Under the pieces are notes generated by a model. That model did no database searches. It saw only the letters and a list, made by a program, of their open reading frames with translations, and was not told the DNA's origin. A DNA stretch of 64,000 bases from an uncultured Clostridia bacterium. GTDB taxonomy: Bacteria; Bacillota; Clostridia; Oscillospirales; JAAYOS01. This document shows, piece by piece, positions 10,608-27,906 of this stretch (the stretch's first letter is position 1; each line of letters starts with the position of its first letter). Where the stretch lies: the NCBI GenBank assembly GCA_947630675.1, contig CANRIN010000001.1, forward strand, positions 69,361 to 133,360, in the 5' to 3' direction. Position numbers and translations under genes: made by a program.

Positions 10608-10684
10608 GGGCCCGTAGCTCAGCTGGGAGAGCGCACGGTTCGCATCCGTGAGGTTCGAGGGTTCGATCCCCTTCGGGTCCACCA
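10608..10684 (+). tRNA. tRNA-Ala (anticodon CGC)
   Basis: Cloverleaf read by eye: acceptor GGGCCCG/CGGGTCC with the G3:U70 alanine identity pair, D arm GCTC-AGCTGGGA-GAGC, anticodon arm CACGG-TTCGCAT-CCGTG, T loop TTCGATC, and an encoded CCA. The variable region looks one nt longer than usual. Confidence 0.8.
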
Positions 10685-10690
10685 AACAGA

Positions 10691-10725
10691 AGAGTCTGAA
10701 ACCGCAACGGTTTCAGGCTCTTTTC
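10691..10725 (+). terminator. Rho-independent terminator after tRNA-Ala
   Basis: AGAGTCTGAAACCG-CAA-CGGTTTCAGGCTCT followed by TTTC. Confidence 0.65.
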
Positions 10726-10832
10726 TTACTCTCGCAACGGTTTCGGGTTTCACAACTGCGAAAGCGGTTTCAGAATCGGAAAGGAATTTGCGGCGGTTTC
10801 GCGGTACAAAATGCACACGAAAATGCACACGA
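10703..10832. repeat. Short direct repeats between the tRNA and the integrase remnant (att/arm-site-like)
   Basis: CGCAACGGTTTC occurs at 10703 and 10733. GCGGTTTC occurs at 10764 and 10793, with about 27-30 bp phasing. A tandem AAATGCACACGA x2 lies at 10809-10832. Confidence 0.7.
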
Positions 10833-10849
10833 AATTCCGGCCAACCGGC

Positions 10850-11262
10850 CTTCGGGCCTGCCGACTGCTCGTCGGGCCCGGCTGAGTCAAAAAACTGTGT
10901 CAGCGCTGATCTGTGCCGGACGTCGTCGGACTGCGCGATATGCGTGTAAATCTTGAGCATGGTGTGGTCGTCCGACCATCCTCCGGCCTGCTGCATGGCC
11001 TTCGCCGGAATGCCTAAGTGATAGCCGAGCGAGGCGAAGCTGTGTCTGAGCCCGTGGATGCCGACCTCCGGGAGACCGTTTTTGCGGCAGATGCGGTTTA
11101 TCGTCTCGCGGAGGCGGTCGGGCGGCACCGTGCAGACGTACTCGCCGGAGCGGTCTGTCTCCTTGAGCAGCGTGACAAGGCGGTCGGGCAAGCTGACGGT
11201 GCGGGTGGACGATGCGTTTTTTGTGGCGTTCTATGGCTGCCGGTTTGACTGTTTCTTGACTT
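10850..11262 (-). pseudogene. Tyrosine recombinase/integrase remnant. Only the C-terminal catalytic half remains, with an in-frame stop and a 5' truncation.
   Basis: The reverse frame reads ..NATKNASSTRTVSLPDRLVTLL...GIHGLRHSFASLGYHLGIP...GGWSDDHTMLKIYTHI, covering the box II HxxR and the catalytic Y. There is a TAG at 11231-11233. Homology ends at the response-regulator promoter. There is no N-terminal SAM-like domain and no box I Arg. Confidence 0.7.
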
Positions 11263-11283
11263 TTTCGTGCTATGCTCTACAAT
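11256..11283 (+). promoter_or_regulatory. Sigma-A type promoter candidate for the two-component operon
   Basis: TTGACT, 16 bp, TACAAT. Confidence 0.5.
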
Positions 11284-11304
11284 AATATAATAAAAAGCGG
11301 GGTG

Positions 11305-11985
11305 ATGGACGTGGCGTACAAAATTCTGATAGCCGATGATGAGCCGATGCTGACCGAGATGTTGGCAGAGCATCTGGAGGGTGACGGCTACATCGTTTAT
11401 GTGGCGGGTGACGGTAATGCGGTCTTGGACAGGCTCAGTCAGCGTCCCGACCTTATCCTGTTGGACATCAACATGCCGGGAACGGACGGGCTGGAGTTGT
11501 GCAGAGCCATCCGTGACACGGTAAGCTGCCCCATCATCTTTCTCACGGCGCGTATCACCGAGCAGGACAAGATCCGCGGACTTCAGGCCGGAGGCGACGA
11601 CTACATCACCAAGCCTTTCAGTCTTGCGGAACTCTCGGCGCGGATCGGGGCGCATCTGCGGCGGGACCAGCGGCAGAGGAAAAGTGCAAGCCTCATCGTC
11701 TCCAACGGGCTTATCGTGGACCTCACGGGCAGGAGAGTACTCTGGCAGGGCGAGGAAATTCGCTTCTCCAGGCGGGAATACGAGATCATCGAGTTCCTTG
11801 CCATGAACCAGAACCAGATATTTGACCGGGAGCGGATGTACGAGCTTATCTGGGGTCTGGACGCCGAGGGCGACAGCCGTGTCATCAAGGAGCATGTCCG
11901 CAAAATACGCAATAAGCTCCTTGAAGTTACGGGTCGGGAGTTTATTGAGACGGTATGGGGGATGGGGTACAGATGGAAAAAGTGA
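11305..11985 (+). CDS. OmpR/PhoB-family response regulator
   Basis: Receiver domain (KILIADDEP...DLILLDINMPG.DG...C..IR....PIIFLTA) plus a winged-helix trans_reg_C domain (...VWGMGYRWKK). The true start could be the GTG at 11311. Confidence 0.85.
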   Translation: MDVAYKILIADDEPMLTEMLAEHLEGDGYIVYVAGDGNAVLDRLSQRPDLILLDINMPGTDGLELCRAIRDTVSCPIIFLTARITEQDKIRGLQAGGDDYITKPFSLAELSARIGAHLRRDQRQRKSASLIVSNGLIVDLTGRRVLWQGEEIRFSRREYEIIEFLAMNQNQIFDRERMYELIWGLDAEGDSRVIKEHVRKIRNKLLEVTGREFIETVWGMGYRWKK

Positions 11986-13277
11986 AGGGAAGCTCTCTGA
12001 GGGGCGAGTTTTCCGTCGCTGTGGCGGTCACAATGCTCGCCGTCGTCCTCGCCTCCGCCCTCACCGCGTGGGGATGCTGGGCGGTGCGGCACAATATCCT
12101 CCCGGAGCCGAACAAGGTGGCGCTTATTATTGAGGAGACATCGGCGGACGGGAAGGAGCATCAGAAAAACCGCATCGAGCTTACGCTGGACGAAAAGGCG
12201 GAGCCGGTCATATGGATGTCCAAGGAGATGACAAAGCCTGATTCCATAGGCGACCCGAGCATTTTGGTGGGAGAAGCGGACTTCTCCGTGGAGCGCATCG
12301 AGGCCAGCGTCTCACAGCTCGACCTCGCCGAGCGCGCCGTCTACACGGCGGCCGGCGTCCTGGCGGTGGTTCTCCCTGTGACCTACGCGGTGGCGGGGAT
12401 CCTTTGTTGTGCGCTGTGGTTCTACCGAAAGAAGGTGGCTCCGGCCATCGCCGCGCTGGACGACGCCACCCGCCACATAAGCGGACAGGATCTGGACTTT
12501 GCCGTGGAGTGTCCGCTTCGCAACGAGCTAGGCCGGCTTTGCGGATCCTTTGAGAAGATGCGAAAGGCTCTCTATGAAAACAACCTGAAGCTCTGGCGCT
12601 CCATGGAGGAGCGGCGGATCATGCAGCAGTGCGTGGCTCACGACCTCCGCAATCCCCTGACCATCATGGAGGGTAGCGTGGAACACATGCGCAGGCTGGC
12701 GGCCACGGGGGAACTGACGGGCGAGAGACTGGACTCTGCCCTCGACGGTCTTGCGGCGACCGCGAAACGGATGGAACGCTACACGGACAATATCCGTGAC
12801 CTTGACGCGCTGGAAGATACCGAGGTGCGGCTGACCGAGGTGTCCGTCCCGGACTTTCTGTACCGGGCGGCGGAAATGGTGAAGGTTCTGACGGAGGGGA
12901 GAGCGCTTGAGGTCGCGGCGTCCTTTGACTCGCCTGACGCGAAGATCGGGCTGGACGTGGAGATTTTCTACCGGGTGTTGGAGAATGTGTTCTCCAACGC
13001 GGTGCGGTACGCCCAAAGCCGCATCGAGCTTGTGTTTGAGCTTTGCGGGGAGACGCTTTGCGTGCGGGTGACCGACGACGGCCCCGGCTTTTCACAACAA
13101 ATGCTGATGAAGAAAAACAGCCTGTACTATTCCGAGGACACCTCCGGCCAACACCTGGGGCTGGGTCTCGCCGTCGGGAAGATCCTCTGCGAAAAGCACG
13201 GCGGCGCACTCAGACTCGGTAATTGCTCATCCGGTGGGGCAGCGGTGGAGATCGAGGTGACTGTCAAAAGAATATAA
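11973..13277 (+). CDS. Sensor histidine kinase (2 TM, ~110-aa extracytoplasmic loop, HAMP, HisKA, HATPase_c)
   Basis: H-box QQCVAHDLRNPLT. N/G boxes (NVFSNAVRYA, DDGPGF, GLGLAV). It overlaps the regulator stop by 13 nt. Confidence 0.85.
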   Translation: MEKVKGSSLRGEFSVAVAVTMLAVVLASALTAWGCWAVRHNILPEPNKVALIIEETSADGKEHQKNRIELTLDEKAEPVIWMSKEMTKPDSIGDPSILVGEADFSVERIEASVSQLDLAERAVYTAAGVLAVVLPVTYAVAGILCCALWFYRKKVAPAIAALDDATRHISGQDLDFAVECPLRNELGRLCGSFEKMRKALYENNLKLWRSMEERRIMQQCVAHDLRNPLTIMEGSVEHMRRLAATGELTGERLDSALDGLAATAKRMERYTDNIRDLDALEDTEVRLTEVSVPDFLYRAAEMVKVLTEGRALEVAASFDSPDAKIGLDVEIFYRVLENVFSNAVRYAQSRIELVFELCGETLCVRVTDDGPGFSQQMLMKKNSLYYSEDTSGQHLGLGLAVGKILCEKHGGALRLGNCSSGGAAVEIEVTVKRI

Positions 13278-13301
13278 TATTCATAGTATATAGCATAAAC
13301 G

Positions 13302-13330
13302 GCCGCTCACAAAAAGTGGGCGGCTTTTTT
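13302..13330 (+). terminator. Rho-independent terminator after the kinase gene
   Basis: GCCGCTCAC-AAAAA-GTGGGCGGC followed by TTTTTT. Confidence 0.65.
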
Positions 13331-13398
13331 GCGGCCTTGTCCAAAAGTTGACCTTTCGACTGTATAATCAGGTCATCGTTTGGAAAGGAGCGATTTTC

Positions 13399-15525
13399 AT
13401 GAAAACAAGGATGGCGTTATTTCTGGCGGTCTGCCTGCTGCTTTCCCTTCTGTCCGGCTGCGGGACAAACGGTGATCCCAAAGAGAGCAGCGTGTACGCG
13501 GGGATGGAGACGGAGAGCAACCCCTTCAACTACGAGGGACCGTCTGAGATTCTGGGTTCGATCAGTCATAAAGGGAATTGGACGGAGCGCGAGGAAGGCA
13601 AGCCCTTGGAGTACAGCGGCGGGGAGATCGCAGTCCCATACTGCGCCAAGGGTGACGGAACCGGTAAAGATGTGGGCTTTCTGCTGTTCGTTGAGGGCAT
13701 ACCCCAGCCTTACAAACTGAACGGCGAAGGCGAGTACGGCTATATGCATCCGTTCTCGCTCAAGGAGGACAATGTCGAGGAGCAGTTCACATTTAACTTT
13801 GTCCCTGTAACCGGGAAAGCCGGAGACACCTTGACCTTTACCGTGGCAAATATCTTCAACGCCGGATTTGAACCTGATATGGTGAGCTCGTCCAACTTCG
13901 GGCTTTACGGCAGCGCACTCAGCACCATAAACTTTATACATTTCTCCGCCGATCCCAAAACCGGCCATCAAGAGGCGCCGCCTTTGAAAGCGTTGTCCGA
14001 CGTCACGGTCACAAACGAGCTGATGACTGCCCGGTTCGTGGAAGAAAAACTCGGCCCTCAAGTCGGTATGACTACGGGAGACGGCAAAACCAGAGAGGAC
14101 AAGCTTGACGAATCCGTCTTTATGTTTGACACCTACGACGGGGAGCCGGAGCTCAACGACCTTGATATCACCGGAAAAGACTCTCTCCATGTGGCCGTGG
14201 ACCTCTGCGGGATACCGGGGCTCACATATGAGGTCACCTTCTTTGCGGATCACGTGCCGCTGTCGGACGGAGAGCAAAGCGTGTGGGAGGTAACGCTGGA
14301 AAAAGGAAAGGTCGCGAGAGTGGAGGCCGACCTCAGCCCGGACGGTCTGGAGGGTGTGACTACCTTCTATGCCGCCGCCTGTATCAGGGACAGCGCGGAC
14401 GTCAATGCCCGAAGCTGGGGACTGATCAAAACAGACTCCCTGCCCATATGGTCTCAGGACAAGCTTGACGCGGGCGGGCCTCAAGACAGCGGTAATAAGA
14501 CCGAAAGCGGTACACCCGCCGACAGCGTGGCGGAGATCCCCGAGGTGATGGACGAAACCGTCCGTTCCCTGTGGTACGGCACAGGGGACACAGTGCTTGT
14601 CAGAAAGCCGGACACGCTGTGCCTTGTTGACATAATGACCGGTGAGGTTTTGGCCGAGGGGCCGGTTCCCGACCTCAAGAACGTCACATACCATCCGGTC
14701 GACGAAGGCTTCTGCGCCGTGGGGGAGACGGCAGAAAGCGGTGAAGCCACTGTGTTGATGCAAGCCGATTCCGGCAAAACTGACACGATATGCGTTTTTC
14801 TCGACAGCACCCTTTCGGAGACAGACAGATTTTCCCTTTCCGCTCTCGCCGGTGAGGATAAACATATCATGTGTACCGCAATTTCCGCGGACGGATGCTA
14901 TGCGGCCTTCTCCGTTATGAATGACGGGATATACCTCTATTCCCGCGACACCGATGAGGTCACACTTCTGCGCGATCTGACCGGCGGTCACAGGGCTGAG
15001 AACAGCGGTATCACGATGGCGACGGGTCTATGGTTCAGCGGGGACTCATCAAAGCTGATTTTTTCCGACAACGCTCATTTCGGCAGTGTGGGACTTGACG
15101 GCAGGAATTTTGTCTGCGCAGGTTTTGACGGCTTTGACCCTCAAGGGGCGGTAGGGTACGCCGGAGGGAAGATGTTTTTCAATGAAAACTTCTTTACCGC
15201 CTCCGGAGCGATGGCCGTCGCGGATGTTGACGGTTTGAGCAGCGTTATCTACAAGCACTCGGCGAGGGAGGGCAGCGGAGACCTCTATGCCTCCCGCGAC
15301 GGCGGATATTTTGCCACTGCCGCGTTTGACGGCGGCCTGACTGTGCGTATCTACGGGACGGAGGATGACAGCCTGCGCCTGGAGTACACCATCACGGACG
15401 AAAATGAGGATGTTTTCAATGCCGCGCCCGGGATCCTCATTTTGGACGATTTGAAGCTGTGCCTTGTGAAGCTGGGCGGATTCTCGGATGTGCCGGCGCG
15501 GGTCGAACTTCTATCCTTCGAGTGA
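13399..15525 (+). CDS. Large secreted lipoprotein of unknown function (two Ig-like-looking repeats plus a C-terminal TolB/WD40-like propeller region)
   Basis: Signal peptide with a lipobox (MKTRMALFLAVCLLLSLLSGC). SD GGAAAGGAG. 708 aa. The C-terminus has repeated S.DG.Y.AF....G.Y.Y type strands. Confidence 0.65.
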   Translation: MKTRMALFLAVCLLLSLLSGCGTNGDPKESSVYAGMETESNPFNYEGPSEILGSISHKGNWTEREEGKPLEYSGGEIAVPYCAKGDGTGKDVGFLLFVEGIPQPYKLNGEGEYGYMHPFSLKEDNVEEQFTFNFVPVTGKAGDTLTFTVANIFNAGFEPDMVSSSNFGLYGSALSTINFIHFSADPKTGHQEAPPLKALSDVTVTNELMTARFVEEKLGPQVGMTTGDGKTREDKLDESVFMFDTYDGEPELNDLDITGKDSLHVAVDLCGIPGLTYEVTFFADHVPLSDGEQSVWEVTLEKGKVARVEADLSPDGLEGVTTFYAAACIRDSADVNARSWGLIKTDSLPIWSQDKLDAGGPQDSGNKTESGTPADSVAEIPEVMDETVRSLWYGTGDTVLVRKPDTLCLVDIMTGEVLAEGPVPDLKNVTYHPVDEGFCAVGETAESGEATVLMQADSGKTDTICVFLDSTLSETDRFSLSALAGEDKHIMCTAISADGCYAAFSVMNDGIYLYSRDTDEVTLLRDLTGGHRAENSGITMATGLWFSGDSSKLIFSDNAHFGSVGLDGRNFVCAGFDGFDPQGAVGYAGGKMFFNENFFTASGAMAVADVDGLSSVIYKHSAREGSGDLYASRDGGYFATAAFDGGLTVRIYGTEDDSLRLEYTITDENEDVFNAAPGILILDDLKLCLVKLGGFSDVPARVELLSFE

Positions 15526-15534
15526 GGCTTGCAT

Positions 15535-16404
15535 ATGGAAATCCGTTTTGAAAACATATCCAAACGCTATCGTCAGAAGTATGCCCTGCGTGGCTTCTCC
15601 ACCACACTCTCAAGTGGCGTTTATGGGCTTCTGGGCGCCAACGGTGCGGGAAAGACCACACTCATAAGCATACTCGTGGGCCTCGTGAAGCCGGACTCCG
15701 GTACTATTGCCGTGGACGGCACGGATGTGCGGGCGTTGGGGCGAAATTTCCTCTCAAAAATCGGCTACCTGCCCCAATACCCCGAATTTTATCGAGACTT
15801 CACGGTGACGGACTTTCTCGCCTACATGTGCGCTCTCAAGGGCATCCCGGCGGCGGAGGGCAAAAGGCGCGCGTCGGAGCTTCTGGATATCGTCAACCTC
15901 GGGAACGCAGCGGACAAGAAGGTGGGCGCGCTGTCCGGCGGTATGCGCCAGCGCGTGGGTATTGTCCAAGCTATGCTGTCAGACCCCGCTATTCTCATTC
16001 TCGACGAACCCACGGCGGGGCTCGACCCGCAGGAGCGGATACGTTTCCGCAACCTGATAACCCGTTTTTCAAAGGATCGGATGGTACTTCTTGCGACCCA
16101 TATCGTCTCCGATGTGGAGTTCATAGCCAATGAGGTCATCATCCTAAAGGAGGGGCGGCTCATCTGCCGGGACACTCCCCATGAGCTTGAACGGGAGTGT
16201 GCGGAACTCGTGTGGACTGTGACGGTGCCGGAGAGTGAGGATCTTGGCCGGTTCGACAAATACAACATCAGCAACATGCAGAGAAACGATGCGGGAGTGA
16301 CCATGCGCATCGTCTCCCGCGGGAAACCCCATCCTAGCGCAGTCCACGCGGAGCCGAACCTCGAGGATGTGTTCCTCTCCCATTTTGGGGAGGTGGAGCT
16401 GTGA
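15535..16404 (+). CDS. ABC transporter ATP-binding protein (ABC-2 type)
   Basis: Walker A GANGAGKTT, signature LSGGMRQR, Walker B ILILDEPT. Confidence 0.9.
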   Translation: MEIRFENISKRYRQKYALRGFSTTLSSGVYGLLGANGAGKTTLISILVGLVKPDSGTIAVDGTDVRALGRNFLSKIGYLPQYPEFYRDFTVTDFLAYMCALKGIPAAEGKRRASELLDIVNLGNAADKKVGALSGGMRQRVGIVQAMLSDPAILILDEPTAGLDPQERIRFRNLITRFSKDRMVLLATHIVSDVEFIANEVIILKEGRLICRDTPHELERECAELVWTVTVPESEDLGRFDKYNISNMQRNDAGVTMRIVSRGKPHPSAVHAEPNLEDVFLSHFGEVEL

Positions 16405-17606
16405 GGCTTGTGGGTTTTGAGTTGAAAAAGCTCTTTGTGCGGCTGCCTGTCCTCGTCGCTCTGGCGCTGTTCACGGTTTTCGACCTTGTGAAGATCCACG
16501 CCACCGTGGACAGCATCTCCTATCTGCATGAGGACAGCACTTGGAACCGGGTTTACCGGGAGCAGTATGAAAACTACAGCGGTGAGATAACGCTTGACAA
16601 AATCAACGCATTGTTGGACATTTATAAACCCTTGGAGACAGCGATCAACGACCTCACCGCCACGACGCGCACCGATGTGGAGGGAACGCTGACCGGAAAC
16701 TTATACAGCGACAAGAATCTCTTGGAGCGATACTTCGTTGACCCCATGGAGCGATTCTTTACATACAAAAGCAATGCTTCGGCAACCGTAAACGCTGCCC
16801 ATGAGAACGTGCAATTCTATGAGAGCCGGGGAAATACCTATGAGGCTAGAAAAAACGCGGCAATAGCAAAGCTCTATCAGGGCCGCCGTGTCACGGAGTT
16901 TTACTACACGGAGGGATACAAGCTGTATCTGAACTATGACTTCTCCGCAATACTCATACTTTTATTGGTGCTCTACGCCCTCTCCCAGACCTTCACCCGC
17001 GATAAGGAGTGCCGGATGACCGAACTGCTGCTGACCTCTCCCGGCGGGGGAACTACTACCATTTTTGCAAAGATCGCGGCGGCTTCGGTTTACATTCTCG
17101 CCGTCTCCCTGTGGTTCTCTGCCGTGGACTTCGCGGGCTTTGAGATGTTCTCCGATCTTACGGATGCGGGCGGCCTCCCGGTCTATGCGGTGGAGACCTT
17201 CCGGGAGGCGTCAGTTGATTTGACACTCTTTGCCTATAGCGCTGTCAGTGCCCTGGGCAGGGCACTGGGCTTCTGGGCGCTCGGTATGGTGTTTCTTGCC
17301 CTCGGCGAGGTCGGCCGCCACGCGCTCCTGCCTTTTGCCATGGGAGCGGGTGCGTTCCTCGCCTGTACGCTGGCAGGCGTCAGATGGGGCTATTCGTCCC
17401 ACACGCTCATAAAGGTGCTGAACCCCTATTCCATGTTGGTGAACCGCCTTCTCTTCGGAAAAACGGAGTTTGTGGACATTTTTGGCGTACCGGTGCTGAC
17501 CTGGCAGGCGGGACTTATATATACGGCAGCTCTCGGAGTCCTGGCCGCAGCTCTGGCCGTGGTATTCGGCGGTAAAAGCAAACTGCGAAAGGGGGCCCTG
17601 CTGTGA
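16401..17606 (+). CDS. ABC-2 family transporter permease
   Basis: The GTG start overlaps the ATPase stop. There is an N-terminal TM, a ~170-aa extracellular loop, and a cluster of 5 C-terminal TM helices. Confidence 0.65.
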   Translation: MRLVGFELKKLFVRLPVLVALALFTVFDLVKIHATVDSISYLHEDSTWNRVYREQYENYSGEITLDKINALLDIYKPLETAINDLTATTRTDVEGTLTGNLYSDKNLLERYFVDPMERFFTYKSNASATVNAAHENVQFYESRGNTYEARKNAAIAKLYQGRRVTEFYYTEGYKLYLNYDFSAILILLLVLYALSQTFTRDKECRMTELLLTSPGGGTTTIFAKIAAASVYILAVSLWFSAVDFAGFEMFSDLTDAGGLPVYAVETFREASVDLTLFAYSAVSALGRALGFWALGMVFLALGEVGRHALLPFAMGAGAFLACTLAGVRWGYSSHTLIKVLNPYSMLVNRLLFGKTEFVDIFGVPVLTWQAGLIYTAALGVLAAALAVVFGGKSKLRKGALL

Positions 17607-19390
17607 TGCTGTGGAAATTTGAGCTGCGAAAGATGTTCAGTGTGGACCGGGGCATTTTCATCGTAGTGATATTCCTGATTGCCGAGCTTGCCCTGTTGAT
17701 CCTCGGAGATGCTCCGGTCAACGCCGACGCGGCGCTCTACCGGGAGCAGTATCTCGCCGAACTGGAAAAGGCGGAGGGACCGTGGACACCGGGAAAGGCC
17801 GCGCTTCTGGAGAGTGAGGCGCGAGATACGGAGCGGAGCAGCGAAGGATTCAACGTGCTGTATAAGCAGTATCTCTATGTAAACGAGGGCAGAGAGAACC
17901 GGTATTTTCTGGACGCCAACGGCTGGGCGGGCCTGCTGGCGGACAGGGCCCTCGATATCCCTTTGGTCGCGGCTATCATTCTGCTGTGTGTTCCCATCTA
18001 CTGCGGCGAGGCAGTCGGCGGAATGGAGCCGCTTGCGCTGACATCGCGGGACGGAAAGCGTCTCTTTCTGCACCAAAAGCTCATTTTGGCGCTATCCGTC
18101 ACAGCCGCTCTGTCGCTGTCGGCTGACTTCGTGCGCCTTACCTTCTTCGCATTGAAATACGGTCTGCCCCACGGCGGTTATCCCATGCAGAGCGTCGAAA
18201 GCCTCGGTTCTGCCGCAAAAGCCATGTCCCTCCGGAGTGCAGAAGCCCTGACAGTGGGCCTCCGGCTTCTCGGCTCGATGGAGCTTGCCATGATAACGCT
18301 TTTCTTCTCGGCACTGTGCGGCCAGTTCGCCCTGTCCGCGTTTCTTGGAACCGCCGTTGCCGTTTTACCTTGGATCGGGCTTGATAAGTCCATTCAATAT
18401 GCCCTTCCACTGCCTTCATCTCTTATAACGGTAGTTGGATTTATCCAGGGAAGTGAGTATGAGGAAGATGCCATAACGGGCCAGAGCGTGGCTGTGTTCC
18501 GGGAGGCAGACTGGAAGCAGATCGGTCTGATCGCCGCAGGCGCAGTGCTGGTGGGCGTAGTCTGCGTGCTTTTTATTCACAAACGATACCAAACGGCCCT
18601 TTCGGGCGGGCGCAGGGTCAAGAGGAAATCTGTCGCGCTGTGCCTGCTTCTGTCCCTCTGTCTGACCCTGGGCGGGTGTACGGAGATGTCAAGCGCCGAC
18701 ACCGGCGCCGCCATATACAACAGCCGAGATCACCAAATCTATGAATACAACGGCCTTACCGTCCGTGCCGAAAACAGCGAACTCATTGTGACCGGCAGTT
18801 CCGGCGATTCGATTTCTCTCATTCGCAATGCCCTTGACCCCATAAGCGGCACAGCGTACTCCACCAATTTCTACGCCAGCGGGAGATATGTGTATTTCTG
18901 GAAGACGGATTCGGAGAGTTATGGTCAGAAATTGGCATCCGACACCGGCAAGACATACGTCACCACCCTCGTCCGCGTAAATCTGGACACCTTCGATTCA
19001 GAGGTAGTGTTTGAAGATGTGATCCAGCACACGGTTTTGGGGGTTGACAGACCTGTCAATGATCCTCTCGGCTTTCTTGGCAGCAACGGGGACTTCTTTA
19101 CGGACAGCAATTACATCTACTACCTCCGTTCGGGCATCCGGCGGGTGGAGCTGCGGACAGGGAAGGTATCTGTTCTTGATATTCCCACAAATCACAATGT
19201 CGCCTTTGACGGCAGAATGATTTATTACCTAGCCTCCGACGGTATCCTGACCTGCTATGACACGGAAACCGGGGAGACAGCTGGCATATACGGGGAGGCT
19301 GTCAATGATTTCAGGTTAACCACGGATGGACTAAGCGTCACTACGCTTGCGGGCGAGAAAACTGTTATCAATGCAGACAGCCGGCCGTGA
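17603..19390 (+). CDS. ABC-2-like permease fused to a C-terminal extracytoplasmic beta-propeller-like (DUF5050-like) domain
   Basis: About 340 aa of TM helices are followed by LLLSLCLTLGGC and then ~240 aa with repeated YVYF/YIYY/MIYY strand motifs. Translationally coupled (GTGATG overlaps the upstream stop). Confidence 0.6.
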   Translation: MMLWKFELRKMFSVDRGIFIVVIFLIAELALLILGDAPVNADAALYREQYLAELEKAEGPWTPGKAALLESEARDTERSSEGFNVLYKQYLYVNEGRENRYFLDANGWAGLLADRALDIPLVAAIILLCVPIYCGEAVGGMEPLALTSRDGKRLFLHQKLILALSVTAALSLSADFVRLTFFALKYGLPHGGYPMQSVESLGSAAKAMSLRSAEALTVGLRLLGSMELAMITLFFSALCGQFALSAFLGTAVAVLPWIGLDKSIQYALPLPSSLITVVGFIQGSEYEEDAITGQSVAVFREADWKQIGLIAAGAVLVGVVCVLFIHKRYQTALSGGRRVKRKSVALCLLLSLCLTLGGCTEMSSADTGAAIYNSRDHQIYEYNGLTVRAENSELIVTGSSGDSISLIRNALDPISGTAYSTNFYASGRYVYFWKTDSESYGQKLASDTGKTYVTTLVRVNLDTFDSEVVFEDVIQHTVLGVDRPVNDPLGFLGSNGDFFTDSNYIYYLRSGIRRVELRTGKVSVLDIPTNHNVAFDGRMIYYLASDGILTCYDTETGETAGIYGEAVNDFRLTTDGLSVTTLAGEKTVINADSRP

Positions 19391-19764
19391 ACCATTTTGA
19401 TATCCTTTATGAGAATGGGCCAGATCTCATTTGCGCTGACCGGAGCCAACATAGATATCAATAGCAAGGAGACGATTATGAACGAGAACGGCATCGAATG
19501 CTTTGCCCCTCAGCCGCCCACTGATCCGAGAGCCTGATCTGCCCACACGCTGGCAGCAGGGTAACAGAAAGAGAGCGCAGTGTCTGGACTGCAGCGACGG
19601 ATTTCGGCCGGTCAGTTATCTTATTGAAGCGCTGGACGAAGACAGCGGCGGGGCGTTTGCCGACAAATAAATGATTTGACCGAAAAGTATGGCAAAGAAA
19701 TTGCCTTCCGAAATTTTAGGCAAATACGCCGGATAAAACGAATGTGCCGATGAACGGTATGGCA

Positions 19765-19812
19765 AAGCCCCTCCCGATTTGCAGATTTTCTGCATTTCGG
19801 GCGGGGCTTTTT
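19765..19812 (+). terminator. Long hairpin plus T-run at the right edge of the low-GC island
   Basis: AAGCCCCTCCCGA...TCGGGCGGGGCTT followed by TTT. Confidence 0.5.
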
Positions 19813-19819
19813 GGGCTCT

Positions 19820-20030
19820 GCGCCGCGACAGCGGCGCTCCGCTCTTATATTAAAATGCTCGGGGCGAACACGAGGGCGCCAACATATTCCGCATCGGAAC
19901 ACATGCAGCCCTCGTAAGCTTTGCCGCTTTGCGGCAAAGCCAAACACTGATGTCATTGCATGCGCGAAGTTAGCGGCGCAGCCGCTAACTTCAACCGCTG
20001 CGAACAGGCGCGGAGCGATCTCGCGGTCTG
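19820..20030. repeat. Partial, inverted copy of the hairpin-module repeat family (locus E)
   Basis: AAATGCTCGGGGCGAACACGAGGGCGCC...GCCCTCGTAAGCTTTGCCGCTTTGCGGCAAAGCC is the reverse complement of the second half of the 6700-6830 core. GAAGTTAGCGGCGCAGCCGCTAACTTC matches 50863-50890. Confidence 0.8.
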
Positions 20031-20120
20031 CTTGGAGGATTTGCGGCAGACACGTCCCGCGATGCTGCGTTATCCTGTCTAAAAACCAATGTCCGATCCA
20101 GAACCGTCCGACATGCCGCG

Positions 20121-20771
20121 TCAGCTCGTCATCTTTTCCTGTTTTACCTTGTGGTCAATGACGTGGCGGCTTTCGAGCTCCCGGCGGACGTCCCCAAGAG
20201 TGATGCCCGCCTCGGTCATCAGCACCATCACATGATACGCGAGGTCCGCTATCTCGTATATCGTCTCTTTCTTGTCCTGAGCTTTTGCCGCGATTATGAC
20301 CTCCGTGGACTCCTCGCCGACCTTCTTCAATATCTTGTCGAGCCCCTTCTCAAAGAGGTAGGAGGTGTAGGAGCCCTCCTTCTTCTCGGTTTTTCTTCCC
20401 TTTATCAGCTCCATCAGCGCATCCGCTGAAAATCCGCCCGGCTCCTCGCCACGGTAGACCGGATACTCGAAGCAGGAGTCGGTGCCGAGATGACACGCAG
20501 GCCCGTCCGGCCGGACCGATATCACGAGCGCGTCCCGGTCACAGTCCGCGGTTATCGAGACTATGTGCTGGTAGTTGCCGCTCGTCTCTCCCTTCAGCCA
20601 CAGCTCGCCGCGCGATCGGCTCCGGAAACAGGTGAGCCCGCGCTCCATGGATATCTTCAGGCTTTCCTTACTCATATAGGCGAGCATGAGCACCCGCCCT
20701 GTCGACGAATCAGTGACGACGGCCGGAATGAGGCCCTTTTCATCAAATATCAGTTCCGAGATGTCTGTCAT
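20121..20771 (-). CDS. hisIE: Bifunctional phosphoribosyl-AMP cyclohydrolase / phosphoribosyl-ATP diphosphatase
   Basis: 216 aa. GLIPAVV.D..TG.VLMLAYM......T...G...F.SRSR..LW.KGETSGN, plus a C-terminal MazG-like HisE part. Confidence 0.9.
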
Positions 20772-20785
20772 ATTATCCTCCGTTC

Positions 20786-21544
20786 TTACAGGCGGACGGG
20801 GATCCCGTCTTCCGCCATCCTGCGCTTCAACTCGCGTATTTCGACTTCTCCGTAGTGGAATATCGAGGCCGCGAGTCCGGCGTCCACTTCCGGTATCCTT
20901 CGGAAGAGCTCTAAGAAATCCTCAATCCTCCCGGCTCCGCCGGACGCTATCACCGGCACCGTCACGGCTCCGCAAACGCGCATGAGAAGCTCGAGGTCAA
21001 AGCCATTTTTCACGCCGTCGGTATCCATCGAATTCACGACGACCTCGCCCGCGCCGCTGTCTACGCACCGCCCGATCCACTCTATGGCCTCCATGCCGGT
21101 GTCGACGCGCCCGCCCTTGGCAAAGATGCGGAACTCGCCCCCGACGCGCTTCACGTCCGCCGATATGACGACGCACTGGCTGCCGTACACCTTCGCCGCC
21201 TTTCCGACGAGCGACGGGTCGCGTATCGCTCCCGAGTTGACGCTCACCTTGTCCGCGCCGCACTTCAGGACCCGGTCAAAGTCGGCGAGGCTGTTGATGC
21301 CCCCTCCGACCGTCAGCGGGATGAACACGCTCTTCGCGGTCTCGGTGAGTATGTCCGTAAACAGCGAGCGTCCCTCGGCGGACGCCGTGATATCATAGAA
21401 CACCAGCTCGTCCGCTCCGCCCGCGCTGTACCGCTTTGCGAGCTCAACGGGGCTTGCAACGTCGCTGAGGCCGCTGAAATTCACTCCTTTTACCACCCTG
21501 CCGTCTCTCACGTCCAGACAGGGAATTATCCGCTTCGTTATCAC
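20786..21544 (-). CDS. hisF: Imidazole glycerol phosphate synthase, cyclase subunit
   Basis: 252 aa. [17 protein letters not shown]......G.PVE.A..Y...GADELVF.DI. Confidence 0.95.
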
Positions 21545-22254
21545 TCCGCCACCTCTATCGCACTTTTCAGGTCAATGGCGCCGGTGTAGTACGCCTTGCC
21601 GATTATCGCTCCGTAGAGGCGCATGTCCGCAAGCGCCCGCAGGTCTTCGAGCGAGCTTATCCCTCCGGAGGCGACTATGTTCATATCAAACTGCTTTGAA
21701 AGCTCCCGGTACAGCTCGCGGTTTGTCCCTCTCATCGCTCCGTCGCGGGATATGTCGGTGCAGACGAGGGTGCGGATGCCCATGCCGCAGAGCTTCCGGC
21801 AGAAGCCGAAGGCGTCCAGATGGGAGTTCTCGGTCCAGCCGTTTATCGCGACCGTGCCGTCCCGTATGTCCACGCCTACCGCTATCCTCTCGCCGTACTC
21901 CGCCGCAGCCTCCCGAAGAAAGTCCTCGTCCGTGACGGCGGCGGTGCCTATCACGACCCGGTCGATCCCCGCCGAAAGGTAGCGCTCCGCCGTTTCCATG
22001 GAGCGGACCCCGCCGCCCGCTTCGCAGAACGCGCCGCTTCTCCGCTTTATCTCCTTCACCGTCTCGAAGTTAGGCGTTCCGCCCGACCTTGCGCCCTCAA
22101 GGTCGACTATGTGGATGTGCCCGGCGCCGCACTTCACGAAGCTCTCGGCGATAGCCGCCGGGTCCTCGCCGTACACGGTCATCTGCGAATAGTCCCCGCG
22201 AAGGAGACGCACTGCCTTCCCCTCAAACAAATCTATCGCCGGAAAAACTATCAT
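21541..22254 (-). CDS. hisA: ProFAR isomerase (1-(5-phosphoribosyl)-5-[(5-phosphoribosylamino)methylideneamino]imidazole-4-carboxamide isomerase)
   Basis: MIVFPAIDLFEGKAVRLLRGDY... The start was chosen so that ATGA overlaps the hisH stop. Confidence 0.9.
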   Translation of the reverse strand: MIVFPAIDLFEGKAVRLLRGDYSQMTVYGEDPAAIAESFVKCGAGHIHIVDLEGARSGGTPNFETVKEIKRRSGAFCEAGGGVRSMETAERYLSAGIDRVVIGTAAVTDEDFLREAAAEYGERIAVGVDIRDGTVAINGWTENSHLDAFGFCRKLCGMGIRTLVCTDISRDGAMRGTNRELYRELSKQFDMNIVASGGISSLEDLRALADMRLYGAIIGKAYYTGAIDLKSAIEVAE

Positions 22255-22868
22255 ACCGCTTTCACCTCGCAAAATGCCCGAAGGATGTTCAGGCCGACTT
22301 CTCCGCTTTTCTCGGGATGGAACTGACAGCCGAATATGTTTCCCTGCTCGACCGCCGCGGTGAGCGGCGCGCCGTATTCCGCCTCCGCCGTGACCGCGTC
22401 CCCGCAGTCCGCAGCGTAGTAGGAGTGGACGAAGTAGACGCAGTCCCCGTCCGCAATGTACCGGAACAGGCGGGACGGCTTCACGAAGATAAGCGGGTTC
22501 CAGCCGATGTGCGGTATCTTCAGGTTCGGAGGTATCACCTCGGAGATGGGGCGAACGCTTCCCGCTATGAGCCCGAGCCCATTGTGCTCACCGAACTCGT
22601 AGCTGCGCTCAAAGAGCAGCTGCATCCCGAGACATATCCCGAGCAGCGGCTTGCCCCGCTCCGCCTCGTCTGTGACGACCTCCGCAAGACCGGAGGCGCG
22701 CAGCTTCTCCGCCGCGTCCCGAAAGGCGCCGACCCCCGGCAGAACTATCCTGTCCGCGGAGCGTATGACGTCCCGGTCGCCTGTCACGACCGCTTCCGCG
22801 CCTATTGCGGAAAAGGAGCAGCCGAGAGAAAACAGGTTCCCGACTCCGTAGTCGACGACGGCTATCAT
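22251..22868 (-). CDS. hisH: Imidazole glycerol phosphate synthase, glutaminase subunit
   Basis: MIAVVDYGVGNLFS......LPGVGAF....LGICLGMQLL...FHPEKS. Confidence 0.95.
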   Translation of the reverse strand: MIAVVDYGVGNLFSLGCSFSAIGAEAVVTGDRDVIRSADRIVLPGVGAFRDAAEKLRASGLAEVVTDEAERGKPLLGICLGMQLLFERSYEFGEHNGLGLIAGSVRPISEVIPPNLKIPHIGWNPLIFVKPSRLFRYIADGDCVYFVHSYYAADCGDAVTAEAEYGAPLTAAVEQGNIFGCQFHPEKSGEVGLNILRAFCEVKAV

Positions 22869-23455
22869 CAGAGCACCCCTTTTGTGGACGGGATATCCTC
22901 CGAGAAGTCCGGGTCGACGGATACCGCCTCGCGCAGGCTCCGTGCGGCGGACTTGAAGGCGCCTTCTATGATGTGGTGTGAATTTGAACCGGCGAGCTCC
23001 CGTATGTGGAGCGTTATCCCGGAGCTGCGTGTGAATGCGATGAAGAATTCCTCCGTAAGCTCCGTGTCGAAATCTCCCACCTTTTCCGAGGGTATCTGCA
23101 TATCGTACCCGAGGTATCCCCGGCCGGATATGTCCGCCGCTGTAAGTATCAGCGCCTCGTCCATCGGCAGTGCGGCGTCACCGTAGCGCCTTATGCCGCG
23201 CTTGTCGCCGAGCGCCATCCGGAAGGCCTCGCCGAGGGCGATGCCGATGTCCTCGGTCGTGTGATGGTAGTCCACATGTGTATCTCCGGCGCACGAAAGC
23301 TCGATGTCGAAGCGCCCGTGCTTTGCAAAGAGCGTCAGCATGTGGTCAAGGAAGCCGCAGCCGCTCGAAATATCCGCCCTGCCGGTTCCGTCGAGCGACA
23401 GGCTGAGCTTTATGTCGGTCTCGGCGGTCGTTCTCGTTATCTGTGCTGCCCTCAT
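22868..23455 (-). CDS. hisB: Imidazoleglycerol-phosphate dehydratase
   Basis: RTTAETDI...L.LDG.G...I.SG.GFLDHML......HG.FD........D..VD.HHT.ED. Confidence 0.95.
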   Translation of the reverse strand: MRAAQITRTTAETDIKLSLSLDGTGRADISSGCGFLDHMLTLFAKHGRFDIELSCAGDTHVDYHHTTEDIGIALGEAFRMALGDKRGIRRYGDAALPMDEALILTAADISGRGYLGYDMQIPSEKVGDFDTELTEEFFIAFTRSSGITLHIRELAGSNSHHIIEGAFKSAARSLREAVSVDPDFSEDIPSTKGVL

Positions 23456-24516
23456 TTCTGCCCCTCCAGTATCTCCCGCACGGTGCCGGCAAGCGTCTCC
23501 ATGTCCTCGCGTGTCCCGACGGTGATGCGGTTGTAATCTGCCGTCTCCGGACGGTCAAAGCGGCGGACGAGGATGCCGCGCGCCCTCAGCTCTCTATACA
23601 GCGTCTCACCGCTGACGGACGGATGCCTTGCAAAGACGAAATTTGTCTCGGAGTCGGTCACTTCAAAGCCGAGGGCGCGCAGCTCCCCGGCGATAAACTC
23701 CCGGTTCTCGCGGATGAGGCGGCAGTTCCGCGCAAAGTACTCTCTGTCCCTGAGCGCGCCTATGCCCGCCGCCATCGTCATTGCGTTGACGTTGAACGGG
23801 TTTGTCGAAAACCGCAGTGCCTGAATGTCCCGTATCAGCGCTCTGTTCCCTATAGCAAAGCCCAGCCGTGCCCCGGCCATGGAGCGAGACTTTGAGAAGG
23901 TCTGTATCACGAGGAGATTGTCGTACTTCCGCGTGAGAGGGACACAACTCTCTCCGCCGAAGTCGATGTACGCCTCGTCCATTATCACCATGCGGCCCGG
24001 GTCGCTGCGGATGATGCGCTCGAGCTCGCTGCGCGGGAGCGCTATGCCGGTGGGAGCGTTCGGGTTTGCGAGGAACACCGTACCCTTTGCCGCGATGTAG
24101 TCCTCCGGGTCGACCGTGAGATCGTCCCTCAGAGGTATCTCCGTATAGGGCACGCGGTTCAGCTCGGCAAAAACAGGGTAGAAGCCGTAGGTGATATTCG
24201 GGAAGACGGCGGGATGCGCGCTGTCACAGAAGGCCATGAACGCAAAGTTCAGCATCTCGTCCGAGCCGTTTGAAAAGACCACCTCGTCTTCCGATATGCC
24301 GAAGGCCCTCGCCGCTTCTGCCGCGAGGAGCGAGCAGTCCGGGTCGGAGTAGAGCTGCAACGTCTTTGCGGCCTCCGCCGCCGCCGAGACAGCCAGCGGA
24401 GACGGCGGGAACGGCGACTCGTTCGTGTTGAGCTTTATGTAACGCCTGTCCTTCGGCTGTTCGCCCGGGACGTACGGCGCAAGGTTTTTATACTTCTCAC
24501 TGAAAAAACGGCTCAT
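23452..24516 (-). CDS. hisC: Histidinol-phosphate aminotransferase
   Basis: 354 aa. ..Y.PGEQP......IKLNTNESP..PSP..., with the PLP lysine region TFSKSRSMAGARLG. Confidence 0.9.
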   Translation of the reverse strand: MSRFFSEKYKNLAPYVPGEQPKDRRYIKLNTNESPFPPSPLAVSAAAEAAKTLQLYSDPDCSLLAAEAARAFGISEDEVVFSNGSDEMLNFAFMAFCDSAHPAVFPNITYGFYPVFAELNRVPYTEIPLRDDLTVDPEDYIAAKGTVFLANPNAPTGIALPRSELERIIRSDPGRMVIMDEAYIDFGGESCVPLTRKYDNLLVIQTFSKSRSMAGARLGFAIGNRALIRDIQALRFSTNPFNVNAMTMAAGIGALRDREYFARNCRLIRENREFIAGELRALGFEVTDSETNFVFARHPSVSGETLYRELRARGILVRRFDRPETADYNRITVGTREDMETLAGTVREILEGQK

Positions 24517-25781: not shown

Positions 25782-25789
25782 TACCCTTA

Positions 25790-26428: not shown

Positions 26429-26430
26429 AC

Positions 26431-27659: not shown

Positions 27660-27706
27660 GGTTTATCCTCCGTCCATGCTTTGATTTAACTGTTTATTAT
27701 AATATC

Positions 27707-27724
27707 ACTTTAAAGCGATAAAGT
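27707..27724. promoter_or_regulatory. Candidate operator (inverted repeat) in the his-operon promoter region
   Basis: ACTTTA-AAGCGA-TAAAGT lies immediately upstream of the minus-strand (TGa)TATTATAAT -10 region at about 27693-27706. Confidence 0.3.
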
Positions 27725-27906
27725 AAAGAGCTATTTGCAAAATATTTCCCGGTCAGGCGGGATGTCTTTTTTCATCTCAAAAGAACGTATGATCCGCGCC
27801 TCAAAGCAGGATCATGCCCTTCAAAATACCGAATATGTACAGGCACAGACGTGCAGCCGCGCACAGGGCACGGCGCTGCCGCTTTCCCGACCTTCCGTCA
27901 GCGCGT

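Follow-up and report, generated by a model that had tools for sequence, protein, structure and literature searches.

A probable horizontally acquired island with a decayed integrase and a two-component/ABC-2 transporter module at tRNA-Ala(CGC) of an uncultured Clostridia bacterium

Results

We analyzed a window of 64,000 nucleotides from an uncultured Clostridia bacterium (assembly GCA_947630675.1, contig CANRIN010000001.1; genome G000) and compared it with five genomes of the same genus (congeners). A tRNA-Ala(CGC) gene was predicted by ARAGORN on the plus strand at positions 10608 to 10684, and an insert begins at 10684/10685, immediately past its CCA end; the 3′ end of this tRNA, the putative integration target, forms the left border of what we interpret as an island. 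The region upstream, from spoIVA to the tRNA gene, is syntenic and 91 to 94% identical in the congeners G001, G003, and G005.

The insert opens with a stretch (10685 to 10835, no strand) that holds a hairpin (10685 to 10727), CGGTTTC repeats, and two tandem copies of AAAATGCACACG, and that corresponds to the attL arm of an integrase family. It is 83% identical to the G003 sequence lying between the stop codon of an intact integrase and the 3′ end of the tmRNA gene, and the conserved arm length is 145 bp. Solo copies of the arm occur in G000 after tRNA-Ser(gga) and near tRNA-Ser(gct), as well as in G003 and G005. This integrase family is active in the genus at tRNA and tmRNA 3′ ends.

Next to the arm, on the minus strand, lies the remnant of a tyrosine integrase (10836 to 11243), recognized by a match to PF00589 (profile positions 110 to 170 of 172; E = 1.3e-8), by its identity to the G003 protein, and by DNA alignment. 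The remnant keeps HGLRHSFAS (the HxxR motif) and the catalytic tyrosine in KIYTH, and it is 58% identical over 105 amino acids to the intact, 368-aa integrase of G003. It is interrupted by an in-frame TAG at 11233 to 11231, where the DNA alignment has AAG in G003; it has no stop codon of its own, the frame continuing into the tRNA; and the 5′ two thirds of the gene are deleted, with the cut at about 11243. The remnant is nonfunctional. A preliminary description of this DNA had correctly picked out the HxxR motif, the catalytic tyrosine, and the TAG, but took the remnant for the C-terminal half of the gene, whereas it comprises the last third (~120 of ~370 codons) and has lost its stop codon as well. 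The description also allowed that the frame might be a chance similarity, but it is a true homologue that keeps its family's arm. Integrase homology ends at ~11240, and homology to other copies of the cargo module starts at 11244 to 11246, at a conserved promoter; the integrase is fused to the promoter of a six-gene module within 3 bp. The promoter of an OmpR-type regulator does follow, as had been proposed, although the junction had been placed at about 11260.

The G003 element at the tmRNA gene (loci L021/L041) is an intact 12.5-kb island bounded by a 27-nt repeat (attR). It resembles the island in the window in integrase family, arm, and geometry relative to the 3′ end of an RNA gene, but its cargo, a 2,976-aa polyvalent protein and a HicB-like antitoxin, is unrelated.

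All cargo genes lie on the plus strand, as does their promoter region (11244 to 11304), which contains a TTTGACTGTTTCTTGACT direct repeat and the sequence TTGACT-16-TACAAT at 11256 to 11283 (−35 TTGACT, −10 TACAAT). This region is conserved among module copies and marks the left limit of homology to all of the others. The first two genes encode an OmpR/PhoB-type response regulator (RR; 11305 to 11985; Pfam Response_reg and Trans_reg_C) and a sensor histidine kinase (HK; 11955 to 13277; HAMP, HisKA, and HATPase_c) with two transmembrane (TM) helices and an outside loop of ~100 aa, and a terminator follows at 13301 to 13331. The third gene (13399 to 15525) encodes a 708-aa lipoprotein with the lipobox LLSGC and is the first of an invariant four-gene core. 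The lipoprotein matched no family in Pfam or NCBIfam; it has homologues at 50 to 82% identity and profile matches to WD40 proteins in PDB, and a low-confidence AF2 model suggests that its N-terminal half may be a beta-sandwich and its C-terminal half a WD40-like propeller.

The core continues with an ABC ATPase of the ABC-2 (DrrA/GldA/NodI-like) type (15529 to 16404; Pfam ABC_tran). All NCBIfam matches of this protein fell under their cut-offs, with the GldA and DrrA models outscoring TIGR03740. It is followed by a 401-aa ABC-2 permease (16401 to 17606; a borderline match to Pfam ABC2_membrane_3), for which hydropathy predicts six TM helices and an outside loop of ~145 aa after TM1, and by a second permease of 595 aa (17603 to 19390), which was assigned from an alignment of six homologues, hydropathy, and a faint match to DUF5050. 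In the second permease, six TM helices lead to a seventh with a lipobox-like LTLGGC and then to a 233-aa, beta-rich outside domain; on the right, homology to other module copies ends at its stop codon. No curated NCBIfam family scored above its cut-off for either permease, and PADLOC models of anti-phage defence matched the ABC ATPase only generically, through its ATPase domain, and did not match any of the remaining five proteins. Pfam and the lipobox bear out the regulator, kinase, lipoprotein, ATPase, and two permeases named in the preliminary description.

Past the second permease, a distal spacer (19391 to 19763, no strand) contains short, apparently decayed reading frames and matched neither any fetched locus nor any other part of G000. 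A strong hairpin terminator follows on the plus strand (19764 to 19812), its hairpin at 19764 to 19810 folding with −34.3 kcal/mol (z = −5.2) and having a T-run directly after it. Alignment to a landmark native to the site sets the right border at 19812/19813, and the native flank outside the island (19813 to 20017, no strand) consists of this rare landmark (GGGCTCTGCGCCGCGACAGCGGCGCTCCGCTCTT...) and an extra 92-bp dispersed-repeat unit. A 38-mer of the landmark has one full-length copy in G000, along with a shorter, partial match on a different contig; in G001 it matches once. Neither the window nor the assembly as a whole was found to contain a further copy of the tRNA-Ala 3′ end, which leaves the island without an attR or direct repeat, and the native tRNA terminator is absent from the right junction. 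With attR and the native terminator missing, the island is unable to excise through its own recombinase.

The borders first proposed (tRNA end to 19812), the strong right-hand terminator, and the lack of a direct repeat all hold, the borders within a few bases. The sequence to the right had been described as a repeat copy; it is one, but it also includes the rare 38-mer that marks the native tRNA flank in congeners. Of the wording "old and fixed," the second term agrees with the inability to excise, while "old" is not supported as written.

The GC content of the island is 0.565, against 0.609 for the genome (sd 0.023 in windows of 9.1 kb), which places it in the lowest 4.4% of windows. Ile codons ATA, ATC, and ATT number 36, 71, and 30 in the cargo, compared with genome fractions of 0.50, 0.38, and 0.12 (chi-square p = 4e-8), whereas the neighboring his genes are host-like (102, 59, and 12; GC 0.606). 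Both the lower GC and the ATC-rich cargo, set against ATA preference in the his genes and genome, had been noticed from the window itself. In overall codon bias the cargo is no extreme case, with Karlin B at the 32nd to 81st percentile.

The gene block was not found at the tRNA-Ala site in any of the five congeners, as the proposed insertion led one to expect. In G005 the site is empty, the tRNA gene being followed by the native terminator and the landmark. In G001 the slot is filled by an unrelated, mobilizable 16-kb island encoding a serine recombinase, a relaxase, and ParB, which ends with CTCCACCA as an attR-like repeat; beyond it lie the native terminator and landmark seen in G005. In G003, yet another sequence, unlike either of these, comes after tRNA-Ala. 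Comparison of these sites shows the ancestral arrangement to be tRNA, 35-bp terminator, and landmark; G000 has lost the terminator, and its tRNA is separated from the landmark by 9.1 kb of DNA with lower GC. Beyond the landmark, the his operon, which had been treated as conserved host flank, proved absent from all five congeners, with HisD found in none. Past its own landmark, G001 likewise carries about 10 kb of host-like DNA that is unrelated, so the region beyond the landmark varies by itself as well.

The cargo genes travel together in other genomes, a check suggested at the outset. In an uncultured Oscillospiraceae (GCA_947627715.1, contig CANQXK010000006.1; locus L034), a 14.3-kb island consists of tRNA-Thr(CGU), an intact integrase gene, and RR, HK, lipoprotein, ATPase, and the two permeases in that order, with a 52-nt att direct repeat 14.3 kb apart. 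The L034 island shares with that of G000 the same six genes in the same order, at 82% nucleotide identity over 8.1 kb, and the placement of the module directly beside a tyrosine integrase converging on a tRNA gene. It differs in being intact, in its tRNA, in its 382-aa integrase of another family (35% identity), and in the additional presence of Amidase_3, two low-GC ORFs, and DUF6809. Module genes also occur together at loci L035/L036, L037, and L045, and the four-gene core is found without an adjacent two-component system (TCS) in four other genomes, and beside a Ser/Thr kinase in one. The L037 cargo is 89.5% identical to that of G000 at the nucleotide level over the lipoprotein-ABC part, with flanks that cannot be aligned to G000. 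The module is itself a mosaic, its RR and HK being nearest to L034 (85% and 91% aa identity) and its lipoprotein-ABC part nearest to L037 (84 to 96%). Intact integrases of the family seen in the window were not found beside the module.

The congeners have a divergent lipoprotein/ABC block of their own at another, conserved locus. At that locus G000 has only repeats, and no second copy of the module was found in G000. Amino acid identity between the G000 proteins and the G001/G003 copies is 73% for the RR, 54% for the HK, 52% for the lipoprotein, 80% for the ATPase, and 63% and 55% for the first and second permeases, while SpoIVA is 98 to 99% identical between the same genomes. In a tree of the ATPase and permeases, G000 pairs with L037 as its sister (support 100/99) and lies apart from the clade of the congeners. 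Together, tree and locus comparisons show the module to be a xenologue, a foreign version of genes that the congeners keep elsewhere.

Discussion

We consider it very probable that positions 10685 to 19812 constitute a 9.1-kb, horizontally acquired island at the 3′ end of tRNA-Ala(CGC) that no longer excises itself. Because attR and a target duplication are missing, we infer site-specific integration from context. An element with this integrase would have inserted into the tRNA 3′ end by site-specific recombination; the 5′ two thirds of the integrase gene, along with anything between it and the module, may have been lost by deletion or by replacement with incoming DNA; and a second deletion would have taken away the right end, including attR, together with the tRNA's native terminator. 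The two hairpins of the element, one at each end, would now terminate the tRNA and the cargo operon. Like classic tRNA and tmRNA islands, the one in G000 occupies a tRNA 3′ end that other elements also use, has an integrase converging on the tRNA with an arm between them, is atypical in composition, is missing from close relatives, and carries accessory cargo. Unlike them, it has only the last third of an integrase, with a nonsense codon, and lacks attR, direct repeat, excisionase, and transfer genes; it is a fixed remnant and not a mobile element.

The remnant integrase may not have delivered the cargo, since the L034 island, the one intact carrier of the module known, has a different integrase and tRNA, and an intact integrase of the remnant's family was not seen next to the module. 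As a variant of the island explanation and not a denial of it, an older element of this integrase family could have decayed at tRNA-Ala, with the module brought in afterwards by different DNA, perhaps from an island such as the one at tRNA-Thr, and put in place of most of the resident element through illegitimate or homology-assisted recombination. The left homology limit of the module agrees to the base (±3) across three contexts that are unrelated, and in G000 it abuts the integrase cut, although diverged noncoding flanks might mimic so sharp a border at 82% nucleotide identity. The solo arms common in the genus suggest that elements of this family decay often, and the mosaic nature of the module is also consistent with a separate arrival; however, this history takes one event more than a single integration followed by deletions, and the donor junction was not found. 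We regard it as a serious possibility that falls somewhat short of being probable.

The 9.1-kb extent of the island was itself weighed against a larger unit. DNA from 10688 to 29454 has no counterpart at this place in the five congeners, synteny returning only at about 29454 to 29480, and one might read 10685 to 29454 as a single 18.8-kb island that takes in the his operon, a TrpR-like gene, an IS1595-type cassette, and a ferredoxin gene. This is improbable, given that the native landmark, which follows the terminator in G005 and attR in G001, stands at 19813, between cargo and his operon, that the his genes are host-like in GC and Ile codons, and that G001, too, has unrelated host-like DNA past the landmark.

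A chimeric join of DNA from two metagenome organisms is very unlikely to account for the 9.1-kb insert. The assembly does consist of 107 contigs, false joins are typically made at tRNA genes and dispersed repeats, and the insert differs in GC, but the junction at 19812/19813 falls in sequence with a single full-length copy, outside the dispersed part of the repeat, and arms of the same family as the tRNA-adjacent one recur at two further tRNAs in this assembly as well as in congeners. G000 also lacks the genus-typical block, as expected if the island copy is the functional one. That the block is native and was lost by relatives, as deletions could in principle explain for a block present in one of six genomes of the genus, is the least credible reading and is already contradicted by the terminator-landmark joint kept in G005 and G001 but not in G000, the very divergent block of the congeners at another conserved locus, the integrase remnant and arm, and the unalignable flanks of the nearest copies.

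Our reading of cargo function draws on domain types and gene order only, and we hold it with moderate to low confidence. The RR/HK pair may sense an envelope or extracellular signal through the outside loop of the kinase and may activate both its own promoter and the operon for the lipoprotein and ABC proteins. The ABC-2 exporter, which has about 1,000 residues of beta-rich outside domains (lipoprotein plus permease tail), probably handles or clears a compound active on the wall or membrane.

This logic resembles that of TCS-controlled peptide-antibiotic resistance modules, which in Firmicutes include LanRK-LanI-LanFEG (NisRK/NisI/NisFEG) and CprABC-CprK of Clostridioides difficile. The cargo shares with these modules an OmpR-type RR, an HK, a lipoprotein, and an ABC-2-type transporter of one ATPase and two permeases. 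Membership in the LanFEG families was nevertheless rejected: the ATPase scored 169.4 bits against a TIGR03740 cut-off of 309.75, and the permeases, without an NCBIfam match, have 401 and 595 aa, compared with ~215 to 250 aa for the MutE/EpiE type. Moreover, the lipoprotein is ~3 times the size of LanI, has a predicted propeller, and matches no family, and one of the permeases has a fused outside domain. In BceAB-type modules the permease is FtsX-type, with a large extracellular domain and a fused 10-TM architecture; this assignment was rejected as well, since the permease match here is to ABC2_membrane_3/4 and not to FtsX, and there are two separate permease genes.

LpqB is the lipoprotein partner of the envelope TCS MtrAB. 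WalA is a predicted beta-propeller lipoprotein in the wal operon of C. difficile (PMC9210968). As in these systems, a gene for a large, putatively beta-propeller lipoprotein here stands beside an OmpR-type RR/HK pair, but it travels with the ABC transporter and not with the TCS. The core is accompanied by an RR/HK pair in most copies, by an HTH protein and a Ser/Thr kinase-LRR in one, and often by an Amidase_3 partner. It is conceivable, although we think it rather unlikely, that the core is an uncharacterized mobile envelope system with interchangeable sensors that moves between islands of different integrases, a new resistance or cell-wall-handling machine of gut Oscillospiraceae and not a LanFEG or Bce variant.

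As an island, this is an ordinary, well-bounded, and decayed example, but one with unusually good documentation for an uncultured bacterium of the gut: a single tRNA-Ala slot has been seen empty, with a serine-recombinase mobilizable element, and with a decayed tyrosine-integrase island. For annotation, it offers defined borders of an island, an example of a dead integrase, and cases of attL arms left on their own behind tRNA genes, and it points to an uncharacterized transporter family that is a candidate for antimicrobial tolerance. The states of this slot, together with the same cargo in an intact island at another tRNA, show that the module is exchanged among rabbit-gut Oscillospiraceae, and the same comparisons show that in G000 it took the place of the divergent version typical of the genus instead of being added to it.

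The tRNA-Ala site in related genomes

The window, which corresponds to G000:C1:69361-133360 in the source genome, G000, was compared with five other species of the genus (G001 to G005), each represented by one genome. By SpoIVA protein identity to G000, three of these are close (G001, G003, and G005, 98 to 99%) and two more distant (G002 and G004, 83 to 84%). To the left of tRNA-Ala(cgc) (10608 to 10684, plus strand, ARAGORN), synteny with G001, G003, and G005 was found at 91 to 94% nucleotide identity; to its right, these three genomes and G000 are all different. In G005, the tRNA is followed by a 35-bp terminator (AAACAAAAAGCAGCCATTCGGCTGCTTTTTGTTTT) and then by GGGCTCCGCGCCGCGTCAGCGGCGCTCCGCTCTT... 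Meanwhile, G001 carries 16 kb of lower-GC DNA 3' of tRNA-Ala that ends in ...CTCCACCA, after which alignment placed both the 35-bp terminator of G005 and its GGGCTCCGCG... This G001 DNA is a mobilizable island at the same tRNA-Ala (L014 1 to 16360; G001:C6:23091-39160), with a terminal TCCACCAAA preceding the native terminator, and encodes a ResIII protein, an SbcCD-like pair, an HTH protein with AbiEii, a MobA/VirD2 relaxase, ParB, and a large serine recombinase. In the window, the same GGGCTCTGCGCCGCGACAGCGGCGCTCCGCTCTT... begins at 19813, directly 3' of the T-run of a strong hairpin terminator (19764 to 19810, −34.3 kcal/mol, z = −5.2), and the 35-bp native terminator is absent from this right junction. 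G003 has yet another sequence 3' of the tRNA, and its contig stops 296 bp further on; an 83-aa ORF after this tRNA was rejected as the end of a serine recombinase, as it had no similarity to the G001 recombinase and no Pfam hit.

The native flank from 19813 provides a 38-mer landmark that occurs in full only once in the G000 assembly, where another contig has a shorter, partial match, and that gives one hit in G001. Its single full copy makes it usable as an orthologous marker, despite the dispersed repeat family adjoining it. Orthology of the neighboring repeat (19849 to 20005) to G005 was not accepted on identity alone, since other copies reach 91%, and the argument rests on the adjacent rare 38-mer. 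Comparison of G005, G001, and the window thus gives an ancestral state of tRNA, terminator, and landmark, identifies tRNA-Ala as an insertion hot spot, and delimits the G000 insert to 10685 to 19812 (9.1 kb). These borders match the interval proposed in the preliminary description, and all of the elements it listed were recovered, position included. Its proposal of an insertion is likewise borne out in that the cargo block is absent from this site in the congeners, with G005 empty and G001 carrying its different 16-kb island. A copy of the tRNA 3' end, as expected of an attR, was sought in the window and the whole assembly (107 contigs) with a 35-mer allowing 3 mismatches, blastn-short, and exact k-mers; nothing longer than 10 to 16 nt was found, in agreement with the direct repeat initially reported as missing at the right border. 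Neither such a copy nor the native terminator is present, which points to deletion of the right end of the element, attR included.

Left end and integrase remnant

A hairpin lies directly 3' of tRNA-Ala (10685 to 10727) and is followed by a set of direct repeats containing CGGTTTC. The 145-bp stretch between the tRNA and the integrase, hereafter the arm (10690 to 10834), carries AAAATGCACACG twice as a perfect tandem. Beyond it, on the minus strand at about 10836 to 11243, is the C-terminal part of a tyrosine recombinase (Pfam PF00589, profile positions 110 to 170 of 172, E value of 1.3e-8) in which HGLRHSFAS and the tyrosine of KIYTH are present. The remnant has no stop codon of its own, its frame being open into the tRNA gene, and contains an in-frame TAG at 11233 to 11231. 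Its closest intact relative in a six-frame search of 400 same-order genomes was a 368-aa open frame in G003 (58% identity over 105 aa), where the TAG is AAG (Lys), and in both protein and DNA alignments homology to this frame extends past the TAG to about 11240. With such identity to an intact integrase and homology running through the stop, the frame is, on sequence comparison, a real homologue: a decayed tyrosine integrase, as first proposed, and not a chance similarity.

In G003, a stretch 83% identical to the arm runs from the stop codon of the intact integrase directly to the 3' end of the tmRNA gene (Rfam RF00023, 158.6 bits); a 27-nt repeat of this tmRNA end, 12.5 kb off, closes the G003 element. 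Homology of both integrase and arm to this tmRNA-site element marks 10685 to 11243 as a genuine left end (attL arm and 3' third of int), which belongs to an integrative element family active in this genus. The G003 element is itself an intact island between its att repeats (L041 7506 to 19990, on G003:C1), with a 2,976-aa polyvalent protein (PBECR3 and LPD3 domains) and a HicB-like antitoxin as cargo. Two further arms, each without an integrase, were found in G000 (G000:C22:15898-16038 and G000:C64:7579-7719; 80 to 82% identical to the 145-bp arm), one right after tRNA-Ser(gga) and the other 220 bp after tRNA-Ser(gct). Arm copies were also found in G003 (four) and G005 (one). The two solo arms of G000 were probably left behind by sister elements that decayed, and they may now serve as the terminators of these tRNAs.

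Homology to other copies of the cargo module starts at 11244 to 11246, in a conserved promoter region (TTTGACTGTTTCTTGACT...TACAAT). Since integrase homology ends at about 11240, the join is sharp to a few bases. Two histories are compatible with this junction. The module may already have been cargo of the element, in which case a deletion would have taken the 5' two thirds of int up to the module promoter. Alternatively, an element already decaying at the site may have had most of its sequence replaced when the module came in afterward, which fits the same join. Intact relatives of the remnant occur at 43 to 58% identity in the 400 same-order genomes, and none of those checked is accompanied by the module; in JGI metagenomes, the remnant matched three distant relatives only, none with module or arm.

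Composition and origin of the cargo

The cargo comprises six genes on the plus strand, encoding an OmpR-type response regulator (RR; 11305 to 11985), a HAMP/HisKA/HATPase_c histidine kinase (HK; 11955 to 13277) with two transmembrane helices and a terminator after its gene, a 708-aa lipoprotein of no family (13399 to 15525), an ABC ATPase (15529 to 16404), an ABC-2 permease (16401 to 17606), and a second permease of 595 aa (17603 to 19390). The distal spacer (19391 to 19763, ~370 bp) holds no recognizable gene and has no homologue in any fetched locus. Of the short frames within it at 19478 to 19670, one is a 19-codon ORF that has a good ribosome-binding site and another, in +1, ends in ...LIEALDEDSGGAFADK; they had no homologue in the fetched loci and no Pfam hit.

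The GC content of the island is 0.565, against 0.609 for the genome (standard deviation of 0.023 in same-size windows), which places it in the lowest 4.4%. Ile codons (ATA/ATC/ATT) number 36/71/30 in the cargo (P = 4e-8) and 102/59/12 in the his genes, with genome-wide fractions of 0.50, 0.38, and 0.12 in a crude longest-ORF gene set. These counts agree with the earlier remark that the cargo uses ATC where the host prefers ATA. Across all codons, bias in the cargo genes is not extreme.

By comparison with its copies elsewhere, the cargo is of foreign origin. In G000, the lipoprotein and both permeases were each found only once. In G001, G003, and G005, a lipoprotein-ATPase-permease-permease block lies at another conserved locus, with an RR-HK pair ~36 kb off; at that locus, the conserved neighbors are separated in G000 only by ~770 bp of GC-rich hairpin repeats (G000:C63:4975-5748). 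Amino acid identity between the window and congener copies is 52% for the lipoprotein, 80% for the ATPase, 63% for permease 1, 55% for permease 2, 73% for the RR, and 54% for the HK, far under the 98 to 99% of SpoIVA. Other uncultured gut bacteria have copies closer to those of the window. The lipoprotein-ABC part of one such locus, L037, is 89.5% identical to the window at the nucleotide level, with flanks that are unalignable to G000, and the whole module of another, L034 (GCA_947627715.1), matches 11244 to 19341 at 82% nucleotide identity, with flanks 76 to 80% identical. A maximum likelihood tree of ATPase and permease groups the G000 copy with L037 (support of 100/99), within a clade that includes L043, L034, L019, and L045, and sets off the G001 and G003 copies by a long branch.

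In L034, an intact 382-aa integrase, encoded on the opposite strand, comes after tRNA-Thr(cgt), and beyond it lie all six cargo genes in the order seen in the window, then Amidase_3 and a few low-GC ORFs; 52 nt of the tRNA-Thr 3' end are repeated 14.3 kb downstream. Given this integrase and repeat, the six genes are the cargo of a demonstrably bounded integrative island elsewhere, which also settles the question, raised in the preliminary description, of whether the cargo genes travel together. Identity between the L034 integrase and the remnant in the window is only 35%. Across nine contexts, the lipoprotein-ATPase-permease-permease core is invariant and the upstream sensor varies: an RR-HK pair precedes it in the window, L034/35/36, L037, and L045; no sensor adjoins it in L019, G001, G003, and G005; and on a metagenome contig (L046 842 to 3156), an HTH protein and a Ser/Thr kinase with LRRs take the place of RR-HK. 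An Amidase_3 gene lies beside the core in L034, L037, and L043/44.

Variation beyond the right border

Past the landmark, the his operon (20121 to 27366) is followed, up to about 29340, by a TrpR/YerC-like gene (Pfam Trp_repressor, E value of 8e-28), a 610-bp cassette, and a flavodoxin/4Fe-4S gene. The cassette (27968 to 28585) is a low-GC insert immediately 5' of the ferredoxin gene, with ~26-bp terminal inverted repeats and an ORF for a small membrane protein. DNA searches of the five congeners found no counterpart of 20121 to 29339, and a HisD protein search found no match in any of them. Since the his region is host-like in GC (0.606) and Ile codons and lies on the far side of the landmark, we regard it as a separate variable segment and not as part of the island; it was either lost repeatedly in the genus or gained from a compositionally similar donor.

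Congener synteny resumes at about 29454 to 29480. Where it resumes in G003 and G005, the contigs adjoin the part corresponding to G000:C13:8996 onward, and the genes 3' of tRNA-Ala in G005 and G001 are the counterpart of G000:C13:7716 downward. This is the pattern of a chromosomal inversion, the mechanism we infer, by which the stretch of G000 from the tRNA-Ala region to ~29.45 kb would have the opposite orientation to that in G003 and G005. Both junctions (29454 to 29515 and G000:C13:7685-8996, L017) carry a 29-nt inverted repeat (TTCACTCTTCACTtTTACcTTTTCACTGC, 93% identical). The second junction (G000:C13:7716-8996) was also considered as the other half of the island and rejected, as it holds an AT-rich 326-aa ORF of no family and no tRNA-like repeat.

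Predicted function of the module

A terminator and a separate extended -10 promoter split the module into two units, RR-HK and lipoprotein-ABC. The HK has a 100-aa outside loop between its two transmembrane helices. The exporter is of the ABC-2 type with large outside-facing parts: permease 1 has a 145-aa outside loop, and permease 2 has a seventh helix with a lipobox-like LTLGGC followed by 233 outside residues, the motif being kept in 6/6 aligned homologues. Around residues ~340 to 360 of permease 2 (18620 to 18680), the permease body is joined to the 233-aa domain by the motif KRK..LCLLLSLCLTLGGC, which resembles a lipoprotein signal peptide placed within the protein. Judging from the motif, permease 2 might be cleaved and lipidated at this internal site.

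The lipoprotein is predicted to consist of beta-sandwich domains followed by a WD40-like propeller. Profile searches hit WD40 proteins in the PDB (E value of 1.5e-14); the AF2 model was poor (mean pLDDT of 53), and the fold search returned generic WD40 propellers only. In a library of 1.84 billion, 829 cluster representatives belong to the lipoprotein family, and the two halves of the lipoprotein are also found as separate proteins. None of the curated families and defense-system models covers the lipoprotein or permeases, and a literature search for the module architecture gave analogies only (WalA and LpqB). The logic of the module is analogous to that of the LanRK-LanI-LanFEG and Cpr modules, but its proteins fall outside those families in membership tests. 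Our best guess is that the module is a sensor-induced exporter that would remove or handle a wall- or membrane-active compound.

Altogether, the insert at tRNA-Ala is a genuine genomic island of a well-known kind, decayed and with sharp borders, that carries a horizontally exchanged two-component system/lipoprotein/ABC-2 module. With arms standing alone at several sites, elements of this family evidently come and decay repeatedly.
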